In this document: piece after piece, positions 1-10,330 of the stretch
Layout of the letters: each line of letters opens with the position of its first letter
Position numbering within the stretch: the stretch's first letter is position 1
Source: a virus
Lineage: Duplodnaviria; Caudoviricetes
Strand: one strand, 5' to 3'
IMG/VR virus record: IMGVR_UViG_3300028591_000117
Coordinates: 59,530-123,529 of that record
Length of the DNA stretch: 64,000 bases
Position numbers and translations under genes: made by a program
The notes under the pieces: generated by a model
The model's input: only the letters and a program-made list of their open reading frames with translations
Told to the model about the DNA's origin: nothing
Databases searched by the model: none

Positions 1-997
1 AGAACTGATACATACTCACAATATATTATAGTTGGTTTATTCTCTCTGATATTTTGTAATAATACTTTTAATAATAATTTTTCTTTATTTGAAATTTCTT
101 CTCTATCTATTTCATCAGAAACATTATCTACAACAAATGTTATATCTCTTAGTCGAACTGACCAAAAATCTTTAGCTTTCTCAGACATTTTACCACCAGA
201 AGCTTTTAGATAATTCTTAGTTTCAGTTTCATTAAGATGAGTTGTATGATAGTTAAACTCTAAATTATACTCTTTTTGTCTTACTATAATTACTTCATTT
301 AAAATAGATTGTAATCTCTCTATATTTTTATATCCAACTATTTCTTCTATTGTTCTTTGAACTTTCTGTCTATTTCTTGTAGTTTGCGTTATTCTTTTTC
401 TATTAATAATTAAATAGTTATATTTAAAATTAGACCACGCTCCTAAAAGACTTGGATTTAATAATGTAATCATCCAATACATTCCTTCTATATTATTTTT
501 GCAACTAGTAGCTGTTAAAAAATATAATATACAAAATATCTTTCTTATTTGTATAAATTGTTTATACATATTAGACTTAGGATTTTGTAGTCCATTATGA
601 CTTTCATCAACAATTCCTAAAAGTTTATGCGTTTTATACAACTCAGCTAAAGTTGGTATTGCTTTATCGATGCATGTATTAGATATTAATAAAAATCTTC
701 CATTAGGATTTTTAAATGATTTCTCAGTACTTATCATTGAATAGCTTACATGTAATTTTTCAGTTAACTCTTTTTCAAAAGACATTAAAGCTTTAGGTGG
801 AGCTATAACTATAGTTATCAAATCTCTATTCTTTAACATGAGTTGAGTTGCTAAAGTAACTGCTGTATAAGTTTTACCTAAACCAGTTAAGTCTGGCCAG
901 ATATAACTGCATAAGGTCTTCTTATTGCAAAGTCTATCATTTCATTTTGTTCTTGTTTTAATGGAAACTCTTTTGATAGTGTATAATCTGGAACCAT
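1..997 (-). CDS. SNF2/SF2-type helicase, truncated by the window edge and interrupted by a 5-nt gap in Walker A (missing from the ORF track)
   Basis: RBS AGGAGG and ATG at 997 give MVPDYTLSKEFPLKQEQNEMIDFAIRRPYAVISGQT*. A second frame from 887 reads TGLGKT...IVAPPKAL...IVDESH...FLTATS (motifs I, Ia, II, III) and stays open to position 1. Confidence 0.85.
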
Positions 998-1017
998 TTA
1001 AGCACCACCTCCTTTAA

Positions 1018-1359
1018 TTAAAATTCTATATCTAATTCTTTTATTACATACTCTGTAATTCTATCTAAGTTTGGTTCTAATTGATACCAAATATCTATTT
1101 TAAATACTTCATCTTTATCTGGTCTATGATGTAAACTAGTCACTAAAACCTCATGTTCAGCTTTAGACCAGTAATAATACATTAGTATACTTTTAATTCC
1201 TTCTTTTAATTTTTCATAATTATCTATTTTATCACGTTTTATTCTTTTAAATAAATCATTTACAAACCACTCACCTAAAACATTAACTCTTTCTAGCTTA
1301 TTACTATTGAAATCTTCTCTAAAAGCATACCATTCTAATTTTTTATTCTTTTTCTTCAT
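1018..1359 (-). CDS. Hypothetical phage protein
   Basis: 113-aa ORF overlapping the end of the upstream gene; no motif recognised. Confidence 0.75.
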   Translation of the reverse strand: MKKKNKKLEWYAFREDFNSNKLERVNVLGEWFVNDLFKRIKRDKIDNYEKLKEGIKSILMYYYWSKAEHEVLVTSLHHRPDKDEVFKIDIWYQLEPNLDRITEYVIKELDIEF

Positions 1360-1921
1360 AATTATCTTCTCTTTCTTCTATTAATCTATCTAATAAAGTA
1401 CATGCTTGACTATACTCTCTCATATTAAAACCAGTATATGTATCACATTTAACTAAATAAGGAGTTAAATCTCTTTTAAAACCTACCATATCAGTGTCAT
1501 CATCTAAAATAACCATAACAGTTTTATCAATATCATAGTTATTTTCAATCATCCAATTCTCTATCTGAACTCCTCTAGTTTTAAAATAATTCTTATTAGC
1601 TCCATCAATAACTTCTACTCTACTGTCTAAACCACTATTTCTAAGAGCTTTTTCAACATCTTTTAATTTATGTCCTATAAGCCATGTAGATGTAATAACT
1701 ATTTTTAAATTATACTCTAAACAAAGTTTATTTAACCACCTAACTGCAAATTCATTAGATACTCTTTTATCATTAGGCCAACATAAATCGAAATAAAAAC
1801 CATCTTTTTCTACCATTCTTCTACCATCAATTGGTTCTGAATATATCATGTGAGTATTTACAACACCATCAATATCTAAAAATAATAATCTATCATAACT
1901 TAATCTTATACTAGTTACCAT
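1343..1921 (-). CDS. HAD-superfamily protein (Swiss-army-knife RNA-repair-type HAD domain)
   Basis: FLDIDGVVN, IVITSTW, RGVQI..W and VILDDDTD motifs. Start moved to ATG 1921 (RBS GAGGTGGAG) because the track start at 1960 lies inside a terminator hairpin. Confidence 0.8.
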   Translation of the reverse strand: MVTSIRLSYDRLLFLDIDGVVNTHMIYSEPIDGRRMVEKDGFYFDLCWPNDKRVSNEFAVRWLNKLCLEYNLKIVITSTWLIGHKLKDVEKALRNSGLDSRVEVIDGANKNYFKTRGVQIENWMIENNYDIDKTVMVILDDDTDMVGFKRDLTPYLVKCDTYTGFNMREYSQACTLLDRLIEEREDNYEEKE

Positions 1922-1937
1922 ACTCCACCTCAATACT

Positions 1938-1947
1938 ATTATATGAA
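1938..1947 (-). promoter_or_regulatory. TTCATATAAT promoter-like motif (copy 1 of 4; also 3040-3049, 11622-11631, 12314-12323)
   Basis: Identical 10-mer containing TATAAT just upstream of four gene or RNA starts. Confidence 0.6.
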
Positions 1948-1972
1948 AAAAGAGACTCAATTGAGTCTCTTT
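1946..1972 (-). terminator. Intrinsic terminator directly after the large ncRNA
   Basis: Palindrome AAAGAGACTCAATTGAGTCTCTTT with a longer U-tract on the minus strand. Confidence 0.85.
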
Positions 1973-2826
1973 AAATATATTAACTAGGTAGGAATTATTT
2001 ATTTACCTACAAGTTTAAGACTTAGCTCTGTTTATTAGTTGTACTCTAATGAGGAAGGATTGATTACCTTCAAGACTGCTAGCTTTAGACAATGTAATAC
2101 GGTCAAAATCTTTTTCTAAGATTTCGCGTTCCAATTTACACCTTCTGACACAGATTTGTACTGAGTGATTAATTGCCAAACTATTATACACCTTTTTACA
2201 GGCTTCAACTGCATCTACTTAATGAAAGCTGTGTATATATGCCTCGAACACGTACATATATCACTATCATCTAGTCGCAACCATCATTCTAGACTGATTA
2301 TATAAAATTTCGCTATATAAACTCGTTATTATCATAACTCTAAGTCCATTTCAGAACTGTCTATATACCACTTACTCCAAGCAAGAGTATTCGTGCACTA
2401 CATTTGTAGGAAAGTTGTCAAATCTTTCATTATTAAATATAACCATCTTATTAAACTACTATATTTATTATTATCTGGCCAAGATAATAACATTTTATAA
2501 TATAGATTGGATTGATTACCAATATATCAGTACTCAACTACCTATTTCCATTTAACACGGATTTTAGCAGACAACATCTATCAAATTTATAGGAGCATAT
2601 CTCTCCATCAACCGCGAACATTTCTCGTTCTCTCTACTGTTTAGTCGCAACACCACATGTAGACTAGAATGCATTCGATAGACTCAACTTACACTAACTA
2701 AGAATAACAACAAAACTCCCTCGGCTTTTGACCTGGCTACTTAGCTCATGACGAGTTTTTTAACTCGTGTTAGTTTCTACTCTTATAACGTCGAAATATT
2801 GTTTGAGTTACTAAGTTAATATATTT
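1973..2826 (-). ncRNA. Large (~850 nt) structured non-coding RNA, GOLLD/ROOL-class candidate
   Basis: No ORF of 60 aa or more. Ends form a 13-bp stem (2814-2826 with 1973-1985). Many local hairpins and repeated modules, a boxA-like leader upstream, a terminator downstream and a tRNA nearby. Confidence 0.75.
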
Positions 2827-2853
2827 TCAAAGAACTTAGTGTATTTAACACTA
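2824..2853 (-). promoter_or_regulatory. rRNA-operon-like antitermination leader (boxB-like hairpin plus boxA)
   Basis: Minus strand TAGTGT-TAAAT-ACACTA hairpin followed by GTTCTTTGAAAA, which matches the boxA consensus of Bacillota rrn operons. Confidence 0.6.
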
Positions 2854-2865
2854 CTCTAATTAATA

Positions 2866-3032
2866 GCTGATAATATACTTAAGATTAAAAATAGTTATAT
2901 TTGTCTATATCAAGGTACCGTCTTCGATATTCCACAGCAAACTACAGCAAATCTTCTTAATTTTGGTTTACTGACTTCATTAAGTAGAGTAACTTAATTG
3001 AAAGTCACTCTTTTAACTAGTATACTATCAGC
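2866..3032 (-). ncRNA. ~167-nt structured RNA with paired ends
   Basis: 5' GCUGAUAGUAUACU pairs with 3' AGUAUAUUAUCAGC (14 bp, one G-U). It starts about 8 nt after a TATAAT box and has three internal hairpins. Confidence 0.6.
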
Positions 3033-3039
3033 ATATTTT

Positions 3040-3049
3040 ATTATATGAA
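3040..3049 (-). promoter_or_regulatory. TTCATATAAT promoter for the ncRNA pair
   Basis: Same 10-mer as 1938-1947, correctly spaced from the 5' end of the 167-nt stem. Confidence 0.6.
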
Positions 3050-3075
3050 GTTTTTTAAACTTCCTATAATTAAAG

Positions 3076-3152
3076 TGGTAGGCAGAGTAGGACTTGAACC
3101 CACGACCAAAGCTGTATAAGAACCTCACTCTAACCAACTGAGTTATCTGCCT
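3076..3152 (-). tRNA. tRNA-Ile, anticodon UAU
   Basis: AGGCAGA TA ACTC AGTTGGTTA GAGT G AGGTT CT-TAT-AC AGCTT TGGTC GTGGG TTCAAGT CCTAC TCTGCCT A CCA: a full cloverleaf with encoded CCA. Confidence 0.93.
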
Positions 3153-3205
3153 AAAACCGTTGTTTGTTATTTAGACAGGTCCTACAACGTGAGCTGACCT
3201 CAATT

Positions 3206-3221
3206 AAATTATACCATAAAT
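3206..3221 (-). promoter_or_regulatory. Extended -10 promoter (TGGTATAAT) upstream of the tRNA
   Basis: Minus strand ATTTATGGTATAATTT; the same 16-mer recurs at 3368-3383. Confidence 0.65.
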
Positions 3222-3247
3222 AATTTAAAATGTTTATACTAAATTAT

Positions 3248-3301
3248 AAAATAATAAAACACTAGCGAGATGTAGTTATTTAACTAGTGTTTTATTATTT
3301 T
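3248..3301. repeat. Perfect 18-bp inverted repeat
   Basis: AAAATAATAAAACACTAG-N18-CTAGTGTTTTATTATTTT. Confidence 0.85.
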
Positions 3302-3367
3302 GAGAATTTCTCTACATAAGATTTTGAAACCTGTATATAAAACTAAGCACCAAATTTATATACAAAT

Positions 3368-3383
3368 AAATTATACCATAAAT
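3368..3383 (-). promoter_or_regulatory. Second extended -10 promoter
   Basis: Minus strand ATTTATGGTATAATTT, identical to 3206-3221. Confidence 0.6.
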
Positions 3384-3398
3384 TAGTAAAAAATAAAA

Positions 3399-4118
3399 CT
3401 ATTTTTCTGAAATAGTCTTATCTTCTTTCATAACAAGTTCTCTAATCTGTTCAAGTTTATCTTCAGGTAACATCATCATGCTATCTAATAGTTTTCTATA
3501 TTCATTATTTAAACTACCAAACTGACTATTATTTTGAACAGTTCTCATTGAAACATCTAAAATGTTTGTAATATCTTTATTTAAATTAGTTAATGTTGAT
3601 GATAAAGTTTTTAAGTCCATGTCATATAAATTTGAAGGGTCAAATAATCTTTCTTGTACTTGATTTGTATAAGCAGTTAACATAGGTATTCTAGAAAGTT
3701 GCATTAAAGTCATTATAGCTGACATTTCTTTTAGACGACCTTCAGTATCAGACATAAATTTATCTACAAATAAAGGTTTTTCACCTTTACCTGCAATATA
3801 ATTAAATAGGTCTTGTATATCTTCAGGAGTAAGACCTAGTGTAAGTTCATTTCTTTTAACTAGTACTGCATCAAGAGGTTTTTCTTCACAAATATTTTCA
3901 ATATTTTCAGGAATAGTATTAAAATTAATTTCTTGCTCTAAACTATCTTCTAACGTTTTATTTTCTAAAACTTTAGCCATAGGAGTATCTTCAAATTTAG
4001 TATCTGAAGGAAGTTTAACCCATTGAGCTTCTCCAGTTTCTTCATTACTAATTACTTCTGGATTTTCTTTAGTCTTAGTCAACATATTCTTTAAATCTTC
4101 ATCTGTAATTTTCTCCAT
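3399..4118 (-). CDS. Hypothetical protein (acidic N-terminus, helical C-terminus)
   Basis: 239-aa ORF with RBS GAGGAGGAG. Confidence 0.8.
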   Translation of the reverse strand: MEKITDEDLKNMLTKTKENPEVISNEETGEAQWVKLPSDTKFEDTPMAKVLENKTLEDSLEQEINFNTIPENIENICEEKPLDAVLVKRNELTLGLTPEDIQDLFNYIAGKGEKPLFVDKFMSDTEGRLKEMSAIMTLMQLSRIPMLTAYTNQVQERLFDPSNLYDMDLKTLSSTLTNLNKDITNILDVSMRTVQNNSQFGSLNNEYRKLLDSMMMLPEDKLEQIRELVMKEDKTISEK

Positions 4119-4235
4119 AATATCTCCTCCTCATTAATAAATATATAATATAATGTAATATTTAACTAGAAATAACTTAGAGACACTCTGGAATATCTTT
4201 TAATTATATTAATATAAATATATTAGAAACTAGTT

Positions 4236-4445
4236 TTATTTAAATCTGAATAAATCTGATATCTTTTTCTTTCTAACAGTAATTAAATTACTATTTGATT
4301 TATCTGATTGAATAAATTTAAATTTTCGTGTATCTAATAACATTCTCATATCATATTGACTAGCATAGTTAATTTTACAATTAACAGGTCTTCCTTTAAA
4401 TAAGTCTTCAATATGTGCTATGTGAACAAATACCTCTATATACAT
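4236..4445 (-). CDS. Hypothetical protein
   Basis: 69-aa ORF with RBS GGAGG at the end of the polymerase gene. Confidence 0.7.
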   Translation of the reverse strand: MYIEVFVHIAHIEDLFKGRPVNCKINYASQYDMRMLLDTRKFKFIQSDKSNSNLITVRKKKISDLFRFK

Positions 4446-4449
4446 AATA

Positions 4450-7161
4450 TTACCTCCATAAGTTTACATTATTTTTCATCTGTCTATTTCTACCAATGGT
4501 ATCATCCCAGCCAGAACCTTGAGGAGAATATAGATTTGCATTATCTTCATTCTCTTCAGTAAATAAATCATCAAAATAGTTAGAATTATCTACTTCATCT
4601 GAACTAACTTCTTCTTTAGTCTCAGTAGTTTCTTTAACTTCATAGTCTTTTTCAGTAAGCTCATCTCCAGCAGGTCCTATAATATGAAGATAATTAGGAT
4701 TTTTCATTAAGTTACCATTAATATCTTCTATATACTTCATTAAACCATGAATATCATTTTTAGCAGCTACATCATCATTCATCTTTATATATCTTTTTCC
4801 TGTAAAATCTTTAGGAGCTTCGATATATGGTTTAGTATCATACTCAAATGCTACAGTCTGACCCCATCTAGTTCCAATATCTAGACCTACTTGCATAGGA
4901 AAATCCCAGTCTTCATACCAAAGTCTCATACAAGATAGAACCATAGGTACTATAGACTCAACGTGCTGCTTAGATATATTATAATTTATTTCATCATGAA
5001 CTGTATTAAGAAATTTAATATAATTACGATTTTTATTTCTAGTTTCTGGATTGGAATAAAACTTATTATAAATATTTAAAAAACTTATCTTAAGAATATC
5101 TGCACCAGTTCCTTGAATAACTGTATTTGTGCAACTTCTAATTCCAAAGTTATACATTCCTCTATCTTTATGTGATAAATACCATCCAAGTCTTCTAGGT
5201 CTTCCAAACATAGTTTGAGTTACTCCAGTATCTATTGTTTTTTGTTCATTTTCATGAACCCAGTTAAATAAAACTGGAGCGCTAGCTTTATAGTCATGAA
5301 CTAGTTGTTCAGCTTCTTCTAATGGTATTTCAAAGTCTATAGCAAAGTTTCTTGGAGTCATTCCATATAAAATACCAAAATTACATCTTTTTGCTTTCTT
5401 TCTCTTACTCTTATCATAGTTCTCATCACCCCAAATTTTTCTAGCCATAACCTCATGTAAGTCTCCTCCAGTTTCAAATGTATGAGACCATAGAGGTTCT
5501 CTAGTTAATAAAGCAGGAACTCTTAATTCTTGAGCACTAAAATCACAAGATACCCAATATTTATCATCATCTGGAGTAAATCCAGAACGAATATTTAAAT
5601 CTTGTTGAAATCCTTCAATCTTCATTTCATGTAATCCTGGTATATTCCAAATTGACTCTTTAAATACCCACTTTAATATTCTAAAACATTTCTCATATCC
5701 TTCTTTAAAGTCATAGTCTATAGGAACTTCAGTTACATCTTTAGTAGTATTATTAAACATACATTCTTCTCTAGGATTATCTAATTTTCCTATAAATTGA
5801 GGATATAACTCAATTAATTTATCATATTCTACATAATAACAATTTCCAATTTTTGGTTTTGTTATATTTTGAATATTACTATCTGCAAAATATGAGTTCT
5901 TTTTATCTCCACCAGCAGCTAATCTACCTGAAGGAACTACCATAGTTTTATAACCAAATCTAAGTCTATTTCCATTAGGATTATCTTTACAAAACTTTAC
6001 AAAATTATCAGCATAAGTTCCTTTTTGTTTTTGATAATTAGCCATTTTCATGAGACTTTCCATAAAAATTCTCTTACTATCTTTACTATCTAGATTAAGT
6101 CTCTCAATAGTATACTGCATACTACCTTTATCTGATTTTGCTTCTCCTCTTTTATTTAAAGCTGGAATTAAAGCTCCTGAGTCTGTTGGTTCATAAGTTA
6201 CAATACCTAACCTTTTAAATGCTTCAGACTTTTGTTTAGGAGAACCTGCATTTATATATCCACCATTAATTTTATTTAAAGTTTCTTGAGTTTCATCAAT
6301 TTTCTTTTGATATATCTTAGAATATTTTTTCATCATATTAATATCAACATTAACTAACTCATCTTCCATCATCATTAATGGATATAAGAATTGAGTATCA
6401 AGCTCGGCTGAGTTTTTCATATTAGGATATTTAGATTTAGGATATCGAGTTCTTCTACCAGGTTCTTCATAGTAGTCCCAAAGAGCTTGAGCTAGTAGAT
6501 AAGTTCCTAAAGCATCAGTAGCTGCATAAGTATAACATTCACTAGGTCTTAGTTGATAGAAGTTCTCAGCATCTCCTAAAGTTTCTTTAAAACTAGCACC
6601 TCTCCAACCTAAATAGTATTCCTCAGAACCTTTTAAATTAGGATAAGGTACATTAGTATCAGAGTCAAAGATAATAGCTTGAACATCTATCATCTTATCT
6701 ATATATTTAGACATATCAAACTCAAAGACTCTTCTTCTATATCTCTCATCCATAGGAATATTATTTTCAATAAATCCACATTTTTCTATTACTCTTACAT
6801 CAAATCGTTGGTTAAAAGTAAAGATATATCTTACTTTTTCTAAAGCTCTATAAAACTTCCGTACTGCTTCTATACCTAAACTATCATTATGTTCAACTCC
6901 ATTTTCATCATAGTATGGAGCATGATTTACAGGAACATAAAAAGCATTTTTTCCGTCATAACAAAAAGAATATCCTACAATAAAACTTTTATCTAAGTTA
7001 AGTCCTGTAGTTTCAGTATCAAATGCAACAGCAGTTCCAAATAAACTTAGTACTTTATCTAACTGGTCTAGACTTTTTATTAAATAAAAGTTATAGGCAT
7101 AAGGATATAGATTACTTATAGGAGCTTCAGGTACCCACCTTTTATAGTCTCCTTTAGGCAT
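4450..7161 (-). CDS. Family A DNA polymerase with 3'-5' exonuclease
   Basis: Exo I AFDTETTGL, exo III YAATDA, SGRL..NIQNI, motif A CDFSAQELR, motif B RKKAKRCNFGILYG, motif C TVHDEI. Confidence 0.96.
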   Translation of the reverse strand: MPKGDYKRWVPEAPISNLYPYAYNFYLIKSLDQLDKVLSLFGTAVAFDTETTGLNLDKSFIVGYSFCYDGKNAFYVPVNHAPYYDENGVEHNDSLGIEAVRKFYRALEKVRYIFTFNQRFDVRVIEKCGFIENNIPMDERYRRRVFEFDMSKYIDKMIDVQAIIFDSDTNVPYPNLKGSEEYYLGWRGASFKETLGDAENFYQLRPSECYTYAATDALGTYLLAQALWDYYEEPGRRTRYPKSKYPNMKNSAELDTQFLYPLMMMEDELVNVDINMMKKYSKIYQKKIDETQETLNKINGGYINAGSPKQKSEAFKRLGIVTYEPTDSGALIPALNKRGEAKSDKGSMQYTIERLNLDSKDSKRIFMESLMKMANYQKQKGTYADNFVKFCKDNPNGNRLRFGYKTMVVPSGRLAAGGDKKNSYFADSNIQNITKPKIGNCYYVEYDKLIELYPQFIGKLDNPREECMFNNTTKDVTEVPIDYDFKEGYEKCFRILKWVFKESIWNIPGLHEMKIEGFQQDLNIRSGFTPDDDKYWVSCDFSAQELRVPALLTREPLWSHTFETGGDLHEVMARKIWGDENYDKSKRKKAKRCNFGILYGMTPRNFAIDFEIPLEEAEQLVHDYKASAPVLFNWVHENEQKTIDTGVTQTMFGRPRRLGWYLSHKDRGMYNFGIRSCTNTVIQGTGADILKISFLNIYNKFYSNPETRNKNRNYIKFLNTVHDEINYNISKQHVESIVPMVLSCMRLWYEDWDFPMQVGLDIGTRWGQTVAFEYDTKPYIEAPKDFTGKRYIKMNDDVAAKNDIHGLMKYIEDINGNLMKNPNYLHIIGPAGDELTEKDYEVKETTETKEEVSSDEVDNSNYFDDLFTEENEDNANLYSPQGSGWDDTIGRNRQMKNNVNLWR

Positions 7162-8183
7162 TAATCATCATCTCCAAGATTATTATATGAAGTATCTTCA
7201 TCTTTAATAGCTGAGACTCCATAGTAAATACAAGTTTCTTGTTTTCTATCAGTACATTGAGTGACTAATTCACTAATAGGTTCATTATAAATATAAATAT
7301 TATAAAATTTTTCTTCTTCTAATAAGCTATAAGTATTAAACTCAGTTGGTTTAGTAGTTAGAGAACCAGTTAATAAATAAAAGTTAATTACAAAAAGTTT
7401 AAGATATTTATTATATTTAATTAATGTTTTATAACCAAGTAAACTAATTAGAGCTTGAAAATCAGCTGCTAATTTATAGTGTCCAAAATACATCTCATAC
7501 TTTCCTTCAGCTTTAGTTTCTATAATATCTAGATGAATAAGAGTATCTAAAAAGTCTTGCAAATATTCAATATTTTTTAAGAAATACTTAGTTATTTTAG
7601 AACAATCTCTATTATATATTTCTAGAAGCTCTTTACTTTCATTATAATATTCAGTATTATCTCTATTCATTTGAACAAAGACATCACTAAAATGATAAAA
7701 GTTAAGAAGTATCTTATATAATAGTTTGCTATCAAGAGTCTTATTTTGTACAAATTTATTATCTTTTACTATAAAGAAACTTTCTAAAATATAAGAAAGA
7801 ATTAACTTATTTAAATTTGTCATCTTATATTCTTTAGAATTAAAGTTTATTACTACATTTGTATCTATTTTATTAAACTCTTTTATATCATCTGGTATAT
7901 TTTCAGATATTTTCAAATTAAATGGTTTATTAAAATAATTTTCAATAAGATTTCTATCTTTATAAGCTTTAAAGTTTCCAATATAATCTACAAAAAGCCT
8001 CTTTCCAGAAATAATATTTCGTTCAGAACTAGAACAAGTTACTATATCAAAATGACTAGTCACTTTCAAAATGTTGTCTTCATTTATATAATAAACAAAG
8101 TCATCTTCTTTAACATCTTCAATTGGTACCATTCCTCGACCAGTTAAAATACGAGTCGAGTTGCGATAAAATAAATTTTCCAT
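7161..8183 (-). CDS. Stand-alone degenerate intein-like protein (Hint blocks around a LAGLIDADG-like core)
   Basis: N-terminal FYRNSTRILTGRGMVPIEDVKEDDFV resembles intein block A/N2. FLDTLIHLD and KLAADFQALISLLG resemble endonuclease blocks E/H, and EEKFYNIYI resembles block F. Cys1 and the terminal His-Asn are absent. Confidence 0.6.
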   Translation of the reverse strand: MENLFYRNSTRILTGRGMVPIEDVKEDDFVYYINEDNILKVTSHFDIVTCSSSERNIISGKRLFVDYIGNFKAYKDRNLIENYFNKPFNLKISENIPDDIKEFNKIDTNVVINFNSKEYKMTNLNKLILSYILESFFIVKDNKFVQNKTLDSKLLYKILLNFYHFSDVFVQMNRDNTEYYNESKELLEIYNRDCSKITKYFLKNIEYLQDFLDTLIHLDIIETKAEGKYEMYFGHYKLAADFQALISLLGYKTLIKYNKYLKLFVINFYLLTGSLTTKPTEFNTYSLLEEEKFYNIYIYNEPISELVTQCTDRKQETCIYYGVSAIKDEDTSYNNLGDDD

Positions 8184-8320
8184 AACTACACCTCTCTATT
8201 TTATATTATGAACACGACTCCGAATTTTTCCACAGAGCATTGTGAATAAAAAATAAAAAATTTTTTAGGTCCATCGCATCGAAGAGCTTGCTCTCGTGTG
8301 CGTTATTTATACTTTAGTAT

Positions 8321-8343
8321 AAGAATTTCTTTTAGAAATTCTT
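8321..8343. repeat. Perfect 10-bp inverted repeat in a structured intergenic region
   Basis: AAGAATTTCT-TTT-AGAAATTCTT. Confidence 0.8.
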
Positions 8344-8378
8344 TTCTTGGTTACTTCTTTCTTATTTCCTTTTCTTTG

Positions 8379-8807
8379 TTAATTTGATATTTGACTACAT
8401 AACTCACTCTTTAGTTGAGCATAAGTACTCTGTCCAATTCTAAACTTTCTATAAGTCTCAATATTTTCTAATGGAGCATTATCGTCAAACTCTCCAAAAA
8501 TGTCATACATTTGAGACTGCTCAGCTTTAGTAAGCTTAGACCATAAGTCATTAAATACATACTCCATATTTAAATTATAGACATGTTGGTAAACATCATA
8601 AGTTCCAAATTGTCTTTGCTCATTAAAGCAATAAAAATGCCATCCGGTCTGGTCTTTAAATAACTTTGCTGCTGGAGTATTATAGTTGTCATGCATTGGA
8701 CACATCATTAATCCATTAGGTTGAACATTAATATCAATGTCTTTTAATATCTTAGGTAAATTTCCATAATAATTTATTACAAATATCTTAAATAGCTTAG
8801 AATTCAT
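8379..8807 (-). CDS. Stand-alone CHC2-type zinc-finger protein (primase zinc-binding-domain-like)
   Basis: MMCPMHDNYNTPAAKLF...FYCFNE; no TOPRIM domain; adjacent to the DnaB-like gene. Confidence 0.7.
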   Translation of the reverse strand: MNSKLFKIFVINYYGNLPKILKDIDINVQPNGLMMCPMHDNYNTPAAKLFKDQTGWHFYCFNEQRQFGTYDVYQHVYNLNMEYVFNDLWSKLTKAEQSQMYDIFGEFDDNAPLENIETYRKFRIGQSTYAQLKSELCSQISN

Positions 8808-8869
8808 TTTAGATACCTCCTTTAAACATTTTTATTTTCTAATATAAATTATTAACTTTTAATAAAAAG

Positions 8870-8902
8870 TGTCCCAGAATTAACTTGGTGAACTCTGGGA
8901 CA
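8870..8902 (-). terminator. CCAGA/TCTGG-family hairpin, probable terminator after the helicase gene
   Basis: TGTCCCAGA-N15-TCTGGGACA followed by a U-tract on the minus strand. Confidence 0.6.
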
Positions 8903-8908
8903 TATCTT

Positions 8909-10330
8909 TTACATTCCACTTAATAAACTATCTAAATTTATCTCATCTGAAGAGTTATTATTTTCAAATGGATTAAATGGAGAGTCATTATTATCAAATA
9001 CAGCACCAACTTGTTGAGCTTGAGTTTGATAACCATTTCCAACTAGATAGTACTCAGGTCTTACAGAGACAGCTTGAGGTTCTAGCATAACTTCACCATA
9101 TCTATTTTTTAATATTTGAACTTGTAGCTGTCCTGAAGCTCTAAGTTCATCACTATTAAATACTGAAATTACACAAGTAGCTCCTCTTTCTAGTTCATTA
9201 CTTTCAGCAAGACCAGTTAATAGATATTGTCCTCCATGTTTATAAGCATACTCATATCCTTGTCTTGAAGTTTGTGATACCATAGTTACAGCATAATTTT
9301 GTCTTGCTGCTAACTGTCTAAAATAAGAAGCATAAGTATTTATAACTTGATATGGGTCTTTATTTGCAGACTTCTCATCATATTTTAGTAGTTGAGCATG
9401 GTCTAAATAAATAGCAAATAAACCATTTTTAGTTTCTTCTATAAATCTTTTTTCAGTATTTCTTATTACCTCATTAAACTTTTCTACACCATAAGTACCA
9501 AGCATAGACTCGTCATAAATCATTATTTTACCAGGTAAACTCATAACTTCATTATAGATTTTACTAAACTTTTCTTTATCTTTATAAATAAGTTTATTCA
9601 TATCTTCTCTTTTAATAGGTTCATTAGTACAAGAAATTGTATATAAAGACATTAAACTAATAATAGCTTCTTCAGCACTTACTTCTAATGAAAAATATAA
9701 GCAATTATAACCCATCTGCATAGCAATAAAGCATTGGTTTAGAGCTAGTGTAGTTTTTAATGAACCAGTATATCCAGCAATAATATTAAATGATTTATGT
9801 GTTAGTCCTGGATAAACTTCATCAATAAAATCAATTCCAAATGGAACTCCTCTTTCAGGTTCTTCTTTATTAATAATCTCTTTTAACTTTTCTTCTGAGA
9901 ATGTAGATAATACTTTATCTTTATCAGTATCTATATAACTATTATTAATTAATTCTAGTAACTTCTCTTTAGAACTTTCTAAAGTATCTCCAGGTTTAGT
10001 TACATCCATTAATATATTAGTTACATCAGAAGAAAATTTCATTTTTCTTTTATTTTGAATAAATATTTTAGTTAAATCTTCTAAAGAGTTTTCACTAATA
10101 GTATTTGCATTAGTAAATGTAATATCTCTACTTACTAAAGTTCCTGAGTCAGGAATACCTCCAACATCATTACATAAGTTATTAAATGTATCAAGGACTT
10201 TCTTTTCATCAGTATCTAGTCCATCAAATAGATTTAATTGGTCTATAACATACTGAATTTTCTCTTTATCAGATGCTTTAGTGACAGAATATAATAAATC
10301 GTATATTGTTGCATAAGTTCCATCTACCAT
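8909..10330 (-). CDS. dnaB: Replicative DnaB-like (SF4) helicase
   Basis: AGYTGSLKTT (H1), FSLEVS (H1a), IYLDHAQLL (H2), VSQTSR (H3), ELERGA...ILKNRYG (H4). Confidence 0.9.
   Translation of the reverse strand: MVDGTYATIYDLLYSVTKASDKEKIQYVIDQLNLFDGLDTDEKKVLDTFNNLCNDVGGIPDSGTLVSRDITFTNANTISENSLEDLTKIFIQNKRKMKFSSDVTNILMDVTKPGDTLESSKEKLLELINNSYIDTDKDKVLSTFSEEKLKEIINKEEPERGVPFGIDFIDEVYPGLTHKSFNIIAGYTGSLKTTLALNQCFIAMQMGYNCLYFSLEVSAEEAIISLMSLYTISCTNEPIKREDMNKLIYKDKEKFSKIYNEVMSLPGKIMIYDESMLGTYGVEKFNEVIRNTEKRFIEETKNGLFAIYLDHAQLLKYDEKSANKDPYQVINTYASYFRQLAARQNYAVTMVSQTSRQGYEYAYKHGGQYLLTGLAESNELERGATCVISVFNSDELRASGQLQVQILKNRYGEVMLEPQAVSVRPEYYLVGNGYQTQAQQVGAVFDNNDSPFNPFENNNSSDEINLDSLLSGM

Follow-up and report, generated by a model that had tools for sequence, protein, structure and literature searches.

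An open-reading-frame-free gap in the genome of an uncultured phage encodes, on the minus strand, a noncoding RNA of a new class, large (about 820–910 nt), pseudoknotted, and multidomain, which lies inside or beside phage tRNA genes and exceeds the flanking genes by far in RNA libraries. By analogy with ribosomal RNA (rRNA), it is fairly well supported that this RNA would be made as rRNA is made, from a transcription unit with a promoter, a hairpin, a boxA element and a 23–30-bp leader–trailer helix, as around the 16S gene of Bacillus. The likeness to the large phage RNAs GOLLD and ROOL hints, more weakly, that the mature RNA is a stable, trans-acting architectural RNA of their kind. Taken as a whole, this explanation, which combines a new noncoding RNA class, rRNA-style maturation and a trans-acting architectural role, is the one we favor and is in our judgment somewhat probable. 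To our knowledge, few bacterial or phage RNA classes of such size and complexity are known: GOLLD, ROOL, OLE, HEARO, and raiA. Those large RNA classes have each yielded unexpected structure, the cages recently seen by cryo-EM among them.

The window (the whole stretch of DNA analyzed, 64 kb) forms the right half of an uncultured phage record of 123.5 kb in IMG/VR, with ∼27% G+C and with genes that all lie on the minus strand. Within its replication-gene region, with DNA polymerase on one side and helicase on the other, a 1.47-kb gap separates the gene for a HAD_SAK_2 phosphatase (1924–1343) from a gene encoding a 239-aa protein (4118–3399). The longest ORF in the gap is 58 aa, and its contents are a tRNA-Ile(UAU) gene (3152–3076, minus strand) and the large RNA gene:

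1965–2835, minus strand: the large RNA (871 nt), bounded by boxA and the far end of the closing helix, with full-length homology to 38 other distinct sequences.
3076–3152, minus strand: tRNA-Ile(UAU), 240 nt upstream of the large RNA.
3208–3236, minus strand: promoter-like sequence ahead of the tRNA (TAAACA, 17 nt, TG-TATAAT), from a consensus scan only.
1949–1972, minus strand: intrinsic terminator, a 10-bp stem followed by UUUUUU.

The original prediction, made from the letters of the window, had proposed for positions 1973–2826 a structured RNA in an ORF-free stretch, with paired ends, a tRNA beside it and a terminator at its end, and had suggested checks against Rfam, for covariation among homologs and at the RNA level. 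Its account of the surroundings has held up: the longest ORF overlapping 1973–2826 is 58 aa and the neighbors are all long and on the minus strand, the tRNA (3152–3076) is on the same strand as the RNA, and a clear intrinsic terminator (1972–1949, minus strand) follows directly. Coding is excluded by the indels relative to close relatives, 12–20 of 18–24 of which are not multiples of three. The G+C content of the RNA stretch is above that of its surroundings, and the stretch is not AT-rich. Intrinsic terminator sites in the region number two, against 0.2 expected, while the total of promoter-like sites, counted by consensus scan, is not above chance. The terminator was rejected as a family-wide feature, since in a crude scan a canonical one directly follows the RNA in just 6 of the 39 family members described below. 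Two further observations concern the neighbors. The anticodon of the tRNA-Ile, UAU, is a rare one, here in a genome with 27% G+C, and relatives have a Trp, Cys, Phe, or Gly tRNA at that position. The SNF2-type helicase gene downstream (window positions 3–997, minus strand) is apparently split into a 36-aa ORF (997–887) and a 279-aa ORF (839–3); in relatives it is one gene of 450–500 aa.

Relatives of the RNA were first reached through proteins like the neighboring HAD phosphatase, which led to contigs sharing gene order (DNA polymerase, 76 aa, about 195 aa, gap, HAD, helicase). The gaps of three such loci (L009, L011, and L012) align exactly to window positions 1971–2835, with 66–69% identity, and more distant copies are present in L017, L021, and L025. 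A motif common to all copies, GTTGAANCNNGTNANANNGNGTATAA, was scanned over viral, genome, and metagenome collections, and matches were confirmed by profile search. After removal of identical sequences, the family stands at 39 distinct full-length members of 816–906 nt, including the window copy; all but six were found with one sequence motif, so that the number reflects the reach of that motif. Other routes yielded little: a first guessed motif (AGTCTA..GTTGCGACTA) matched two unrelated loci only, a DNA search of cultured phages returned only a 59-nt tRNA match, and single-protein locus searches with two flanking proteins found no loci. A covariance model built from the 5′ domain (R1) matches family members only, and it found no further members in 110 other loci. 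The carriers are uncultured phage contigs of ∼80–130 kb from rumen and gut, and their sources include the gut or rumen of sheep, cattle, goats, and yaks as well as the human gut. The best cultured relative of the DNA polymerase is just 26% identical. Two members lie on 116–120-kb contigs binned in metagenome-assembled genomes labeled Bacilli and Bacteroidaceae, neither of which has rRNA genes. Judged by flanking genes, the nearest relative is L004, in which the RNA and the tRNA are both absent though those genes are kept, so that the RNA/tRNA unit is gained or lost as a module. Parts of the spacer that separates the tRNA from the RNA (2926–3011) and of the region upstream of the tRNA (3196–3384) are nevertheless 75–77% conserved in L004; this same spacer lies within an abundant RNA contig and is not conserved in the closer RNA-bearing relatives L009, L011, and L012.

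Comparison of the 39 sequences reveals an elaborate fold, the elements of which are as follows:

2811–2834, minus strand: 5′ (leader) strand of the closing helix P1, paired with 1965–1987; 18 of 23 pairs are compensatory and 89% of cells are standard pairs.
1965–1987, minus strand: 3′ (trailer) strand of P1, paired with the leader strand.
2712–2808, minus strand: 5′ domain, comprising the P2 hairpin and the P3 three-way element, whose helices have 94–100% standard pairs and compensatory changes.
2686–2708, minus strand: 5′ strand of a long-range helix that closes the central core (19 pairs, 88–100% standard, 11 compensatory).
2013–2039, minus strand: 3′ strand of the long-range helix, partner of 2686–2708.
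2556–2616, minus strand: pseudoknot 1, CGCGG (2616–2612) with CCGUG (2560–2556), a 5-bp covarying stack that crosses helix 2684–2676/2586–2576.
2149–2213, minus strand: pseudoknot 2, UGCAG (2213–2209) with CUGUG (2153–2149), a 5-bp stack with four covarying pairs that crosses the helices closing at 2169–2160.
2506–2523, minus strand: hairpin 1, with the conserved loop UAAUCAAU (GGUAAUCAAUCC) and a stem that covaries at five of five pairs.
2465–2491, minus strand: hairpin with the palindromic loop tetramer GGCC (2477–2480), a candidate kissing-loop self-association site.
2184–2209, minus strand: the most conserved core, GUUGAAGC-hairpin-GUAUAA, with columns invariant in the 39-sequence alignment; this is the motif used to find the family.
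2051–2071, minus strand: hairpin 2, with the same loop as hairpin 1 in this clade, the sole similarity found between the RNA halves.
1988–2010, minus strand: 3′ hairpin GUAGG...CCUAC, in which all cells are standard pairs and four of five pairs covary.

With RNAalifold, the 39 sequences give 151 pairs, 124 of them with compensatory double changes. RIBOSUM scoring yields a 232-pair consensus fold over a 1089-column alignment, with standard pairs in 92.9% of cells and double compensatory changes at 172 pairs; when the 3′ partners are slid by 1–3 columns as a control, 40–46% of cells are standard pairs and 71–91 pairs show double changes. The covariation score is 0.53, compared with 0.10–0.15 for slid partners and 0.21 for shuffles, and none of 200 column shuffles reaches the observed values. 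Covariation among the 39 homologs is thus strong and, together with their conservation, excludes chance. The two 5-bp stacks that covary and cross nested helices identify the pseudoknots. The enclosing stem of the original prediction is confirmed, its arms lying at 1966–1990 and 2809–2833 and the helix extending over 23 bp in the family alignment with compensatory changes at 18 pairs. The individual hairpins that it had named fared less evenly: GUAGG..CCUAC (2010–1988) and UUAUUAUCU/AGAUAAUAA (2491–2465) are conserved and covary, but ACGAGUU..AACUCGU (2751–2768) is an insertion private to this phage. An origin of the RNA from duplicated halves was considered and rejected, the halves sharing just one short hairpin module (loop UAAUCAAU). 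The minimum free energy is −209 kcal/mol on the minus strand (z = −3.3) versus −169 on the plus strand. Across the alignment, paired cells are G-U in 11.4% and A-C in 1.3% of cases, a ratio of nine to one, which indicates that selection acts on the minus-strand RNA.

The RNA is also found in RNA libraries, the level at which the original prediction had proposed to confirm it. From one sheep sample, two metatranscriptome runs yield contigs that match the window without differences and span 2025–3128 (depth 16.8) and 2094–3057 (depth 96.8), and in the same runs the flanking genes are represented only by minimal 151-nt contigs at a depth of about 2. A bovine metatranscriptome from a separate study covers 2053–2819 only. 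In these sheep and bovine gut contigs, the RNA stands at roughly 50-fold the depth of the flanking genes. A DNA run, in contrast, covers window positions 1–9000 evenly in one contig at a depth of 12.8; contamination by DNA could not produce a contrast of this size. The RNA evidence consists of assembled contigs, so that strand, ends and true levels are beyond its reach, and uncovered parts are no sign of silence. One RNA contig continues past the site where 5′ processing is predicted, across the spacer and into the tRNA; because it is unbroken from 2025 to 3128, the large RNA is probably cotranscribed with tRNA-Ile in the window's phage, from the promoter-like site at 3236–3208.

These data bear on whether the element acts as DNA at all. 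A replication origin, a packaging site or a decayed gene could be imagined in a replication-gene region between DNA polymerase and helicase, and inverted repeats are present. However, the pairs are kept through G-U and not A-C, as expected of selection on one RNA strand, the element is about 50-fold overrepresented in RNA libraries and not in DNA, its G+C content exceeds that of the surroundings, promoter and terminator signals are present, and L004 lacks it despite having the same flanking genes. We therefore regard a DNA-level element or decayed gene as barely credible.

Of the known RNA families, none accounts for the element. Rfam 15, searched with cmscan over the whole window as the original prediction had advised, returned only tRNA at gathering score, and at E values up to 10 with lax filters it gave nothing meaningful in 1700–3400 or in the distant member L025. 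For GOLLD (RF02032), any similarity falls below the gathering score of 150 bits, with no match at E up to 10 on 1700–3400 or L025; a search of the entire phage record at E up to 1 was likewise empty. ROOL (RF03087, gathering score 99.1 bits) has no match in the RNA, in L025 or in the whole phage record, the model being one without a positive-control match here, and OLE (RF01071, gathering score 50 bits) has none in the RNA or the whole phage record. The GOLLD and OLE negatives are informative because both models matched elsewhere in related loci (L107 for GOLLD; L100 and L148 for OLE). A literature search found no description of this RNA; a large IMG/VR screen reports motifs of 29–151 nt only. 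The original prediction had left the choice between a member of the GOLLD or ROOL families and a new class, and it is the new class that the evidence bears out: Rfam 15 has no match, covariation among homologs is strong, and RNA-library contigs cover the element. The RNA represents an undescribed family within a known kind, the large ornate phage RNAs of tRNA islands.

The loci of relatives are rich in other structured RNAs. On L107, a 123.6-kb phage contig, a GOLLD match (RF02032) lies at 3626–4137 on the plus strand with 150.4 bits (cut-off 150), 380 nt downstream of a family member at 2339–3246; the two are different giant RNAs side by side, separate and each complete. The same contig has a c-di-GMP-I riboswitch match at 7990–8064. 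Partial strong matches to OLE (RF01071; 108 and 96 bits, model positions about 282–616) occur at L100:4004–4282 and L148:1–316 (plus strand), inside phage tRNA islands and 0.2–2 kb upstream of a member of the new family. Outside such loci, OLE has been described from the chromosomes of Bacillota that are anaerobes or extremophiles. Phage tmRNA genes are found in the same tRNA islands (L025:1650–2064, L105:8237–8634, L100:268–691, and L021:1000–1400).

The idea that the RNA is a very divergent GOLLD, ROOL, or OLE missed by the Rfam models can be weighed against these findings. Their size range, phage and tRNA-island context and rumen origin are the same (PMC12286853), and a relative, L107, has a GOLLD 380 nt downstream. 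Yet the three models find no match at E up to 10 with lax filters in either the window copy or the distant member, nor in the whole phage record; the L107 GOLLD and the new RNA are separate, complete units; and neither the L107 GOLLD nor the L100 OLE-like RNA has a boxA such as that of the new family. A divergent member of a known family is therefore very unlikely. Resemblance in kind is nonetheless considerable. GOLLD is likewise about 800 nt, ornate and pseudoknotted, is carried by phages or prophages usually by tRNA genes, and is strongly expressed, and in size and tRNA association the new RNA agrees with it (871 nt; 31 of 39 members). It differs in that the GOLLD model has no match here and in that the new RNA is closed by a long terminal helix with a Bacillota boxA, which the L107 GOLLD lacks. 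ROOL, too, is a large, ornate RNA of rumen and gut phages near tRNA islands and can equal rRNA in abundance (PMC12286853), but it measures about 580–660 nt and has another fold, and its model matches neither the RNA nor the phage record. OLE, again large and ornate, comes from anaerobic Bacillota and forms homodimers (PMC12286853), and two relatives have OLE-like sequences in their tRNA islands; in contrast to the new RNA, in which its model finds no match, OLE is a membrane-associated ribonucleoprotein of cellular genomes.

What sets the new family apart are its flanks, which resemble those of rRNA; this arrangement, like the strand of the RNA, had escaped the original prediction. Two elements in the window define the 5′ side:

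2838–2852, minus strand: small hairpin AGUGU-UAAAU-ACACU, 2 nt before boxA and in a boxB-like position.
2824–2835, minus strand: boxA-like 5′ element GUUCUUUGAAAA, which is also the base of the P1 5′ strand.

The element GUUCUUUGAAAA has a single match in the 64-kb window and is exact in 29 of 39 members. It has 8 variants, versus 24 (mostly G-U-compatible) for its 3′ pairing partner, and carries 20.7 bits versus 13.7, an asymmetry that suggests constraint on the 5′ strand beyond pairing. Among the exceptions, L117 has GUUCUAUUGAUU, and L017 and L131 are changed to ACU(U/C)UCUAAAAG with pairing kept by compensating trailer changes, which points to pairing as the more universal constraint. In Bacillus horikoshii, GUUCUUUGAAAA occurs four times in 4.3 Mb, and two of the copies precede 16S genes by 99 nt and share their strand. 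The leader there runs in the order promoter, hairpin, GTTCTTTGAAAACTAAAC.., and the trailer after 16S pairs with exactly that stretch, as P1 does. In Bacillus subtilis, the boxA-like consensus of the rrn operons, AUGAUCUUUGAAA, binds NusB, as a 2026 paper describes (PMC13753749), and GUUCUUUGAAAA agrees with this NusB-binding consensus at 10 of 11 positions. Hairpin-then-boxA is the order in Bacillus rRNA leaders as well (PMC13753749), and tethering through boxA has been modeled to promote formation of the leader–trailer helix (PMC10250234). In 31 Bacillota genomes, the 12-mer has 40 matches versus 31 for the reversed control, a difference too slight to carry weight, although several of the matches are at contig ends, as rRNA flanks are. 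Judged from boxA likeness alone, the phages may have a host of the Bacillota type.

The remaining parts of an rRNA-like unit are found across the family. At least 22 of the 37 members with enough flank have a strong promoter (TTGAAA or TTGATT, 17 nt, TGATATAAT) about 50–60 nt before boxA, and in many members a small hairpin is predicted directly before boxA, downstream of the RNA's own promoter. The RNA thus has a host-type boxA near its 5′ end and a long leader–trailer helix (P1, 23 bp, 18 covarying). The likeness to precursor rRNA extends to the whole arrangement of promoter, small hairpin, boxA, and long leader–trailer helix around a large structured RNA, often cotranscribed with tRNAs, and to the 12-nt boxA, identical to that of the B. 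horikoshii rrn leaders, where it is trailer-paired as well. The difference lies in what is enclosed, a phage-encoded body of only about 820 nt that is unrelated to 16S or 23S rRNA. Descent from rRNA was accordingly rejected, as only boxA matches the Bacillus rrn operon and there is no SSU or LSU Rfam match.

If the analogy with rRNA holds, boxA would recruit host NusB/S10 and other Nus factors, and the long untranslated transcript would then escape Rho termination. Folding of the body would take place with the two transcript ends kept in contact, and RNase III-type trimming could act on the long terminal helix.

The same flanks admit a different purpose, namely that of a pseudo-rRNA decoy: an abundant mimic of the pre-rRNA leader that soaks up host factors and so redirects ribosome production or blunts abortive infection. 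Candidate targets would be Nus factors, RNase III, ribosomal proteins, assembly factors, or ribosome- and tRNA-directed defense nucleases. Such a decoy would fit flanks that copy the Bacillus 16S leader and trailer, the abundance of the RNA and its translation and RNA-repair neighborhood, and for OLE RNA, sequestration of ribosomal protein bS21 has been proposed (PMC12286853). It fits less well with a body in which nothing resembles 16S or 23S, boxA alone matching, and about 800 nt of conserved, pseudoknotted structure would be needless for a simple decoy. We consider this role improbable, although it is the most credible of the rivals considered here.

Alternatively, the hairpin and boxA could form a cis-acting, nut-like antitermination site or long leader, loading Nus factors so that polymerase reads through terminators into the HAD phosphatase and helicase genes. 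The 5′ hairpin–boxA order does resemble that of rrn and lambda nut sites (PMC10250234), and in the window's phage the 5′ arm of the terminator hairpin overlaps the P1 3′ (trailer) strand. However, about 30 nt suffice for such a site, yet conservation with covariation extends over another 800 nt; RNA libraries contain far less of the genes that follow than of the RNA; and the downstream gene differs between clades, being HAD, a 113-aa protein, a 370–409-aa protein, or tRNAs. As the explanation of the element, cis antitermination is still less probable than a decoy, but it could coexist with a function in trans.

A role in trans for the mature RNA, the third part of the explanation that we favor, may involve self-association. 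Most members have GGCC as the loop core of the hairpin at 2491–2465; three have GAUC, two have GUAC, and one (L107) is ambiguous. The tetramer thus stays self-complementary through double changes of adjacent bases, of which only two or three are independent, and joint change of adjacent bases with the palindrome kept is what a loop–loop contact between two copies predicts. The RNA may therefore associate with its own copies through this loop, as the pattern of substitutions suggests. GOLLD, ROOL, and OLE are all homo-oligomeric, the first of them assembling into cages, and GOLLD and ROOL are neighbors of phage tRNA islands (PMC12286853); the new RNA has a candidate self-pairing loop. A bolder proposal would make the family a third unrelated group of giant self-assembling phage RNAs, one that hijacks the host's rRNA production line (boxA and Nus-factor antitermination, leader–trailer folding, and RNase III trimming) to reach rRNA-like amounts and multimerizes by a palindromic kissing loop into a cage or scaffold acting on tRNAs or ribosomes in the course of infection; this proposal is tentative and, in our estimate, doubtful.

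The gene neighborhood indicates where such an RNA might act. A same-strand tRNA lies at most 500 nt upstream in 31 of the 39 members, mostly 55–100 nt away, and an opposite-strand tRNA in none; several members lie within tRNA islands. A HAD_SAK_2 phosphatase is found within 1 kb in 21 of the 38 other loci, a Metallophos_2 phosphoesterase (phrog_547) lies upstream in 17 loci, and an uncharacterized 370–409-aa protein is encoded downstream in 16. Suppressor-type tRNAs adjoin the RNA in some phages, with anticodon UCA in L097, L143, and L153 and CUA in L168, where the tRNA is 8 nt upstream of the RNA; phages with such tRNAs, which would read UGA or UAG, may recode a stop codon. A more distant HAD-containing contig without the RNA (L006:4466–5210) has the HAD gene followed by a LuxS-like gene and an Acb2/Tad1-type antidefense hairpin protein. 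The tmRNA, the one GOLLD, and the OLE-like RNAs in the same islands suggest that the new RNA belongs, along with several other large RNAs, to a module for translation and RNA repair, and it probably serves this phage translation and tRNA-maintenance module rather than regulating a neighboring gene.

Collectively, these analyses provide a family of at least 39 diverse sequences with a well-supported fold, including two pseudoknots, and with high expression in ruminant gut samples. Its borrowed rRNA signals would constitute a concrete, testable route of biogenesis, and its palindromic loop is a specific candidate site of self-association. Furthermore, the family hints at how phages may get long untranslated RNAs past Rho termination.
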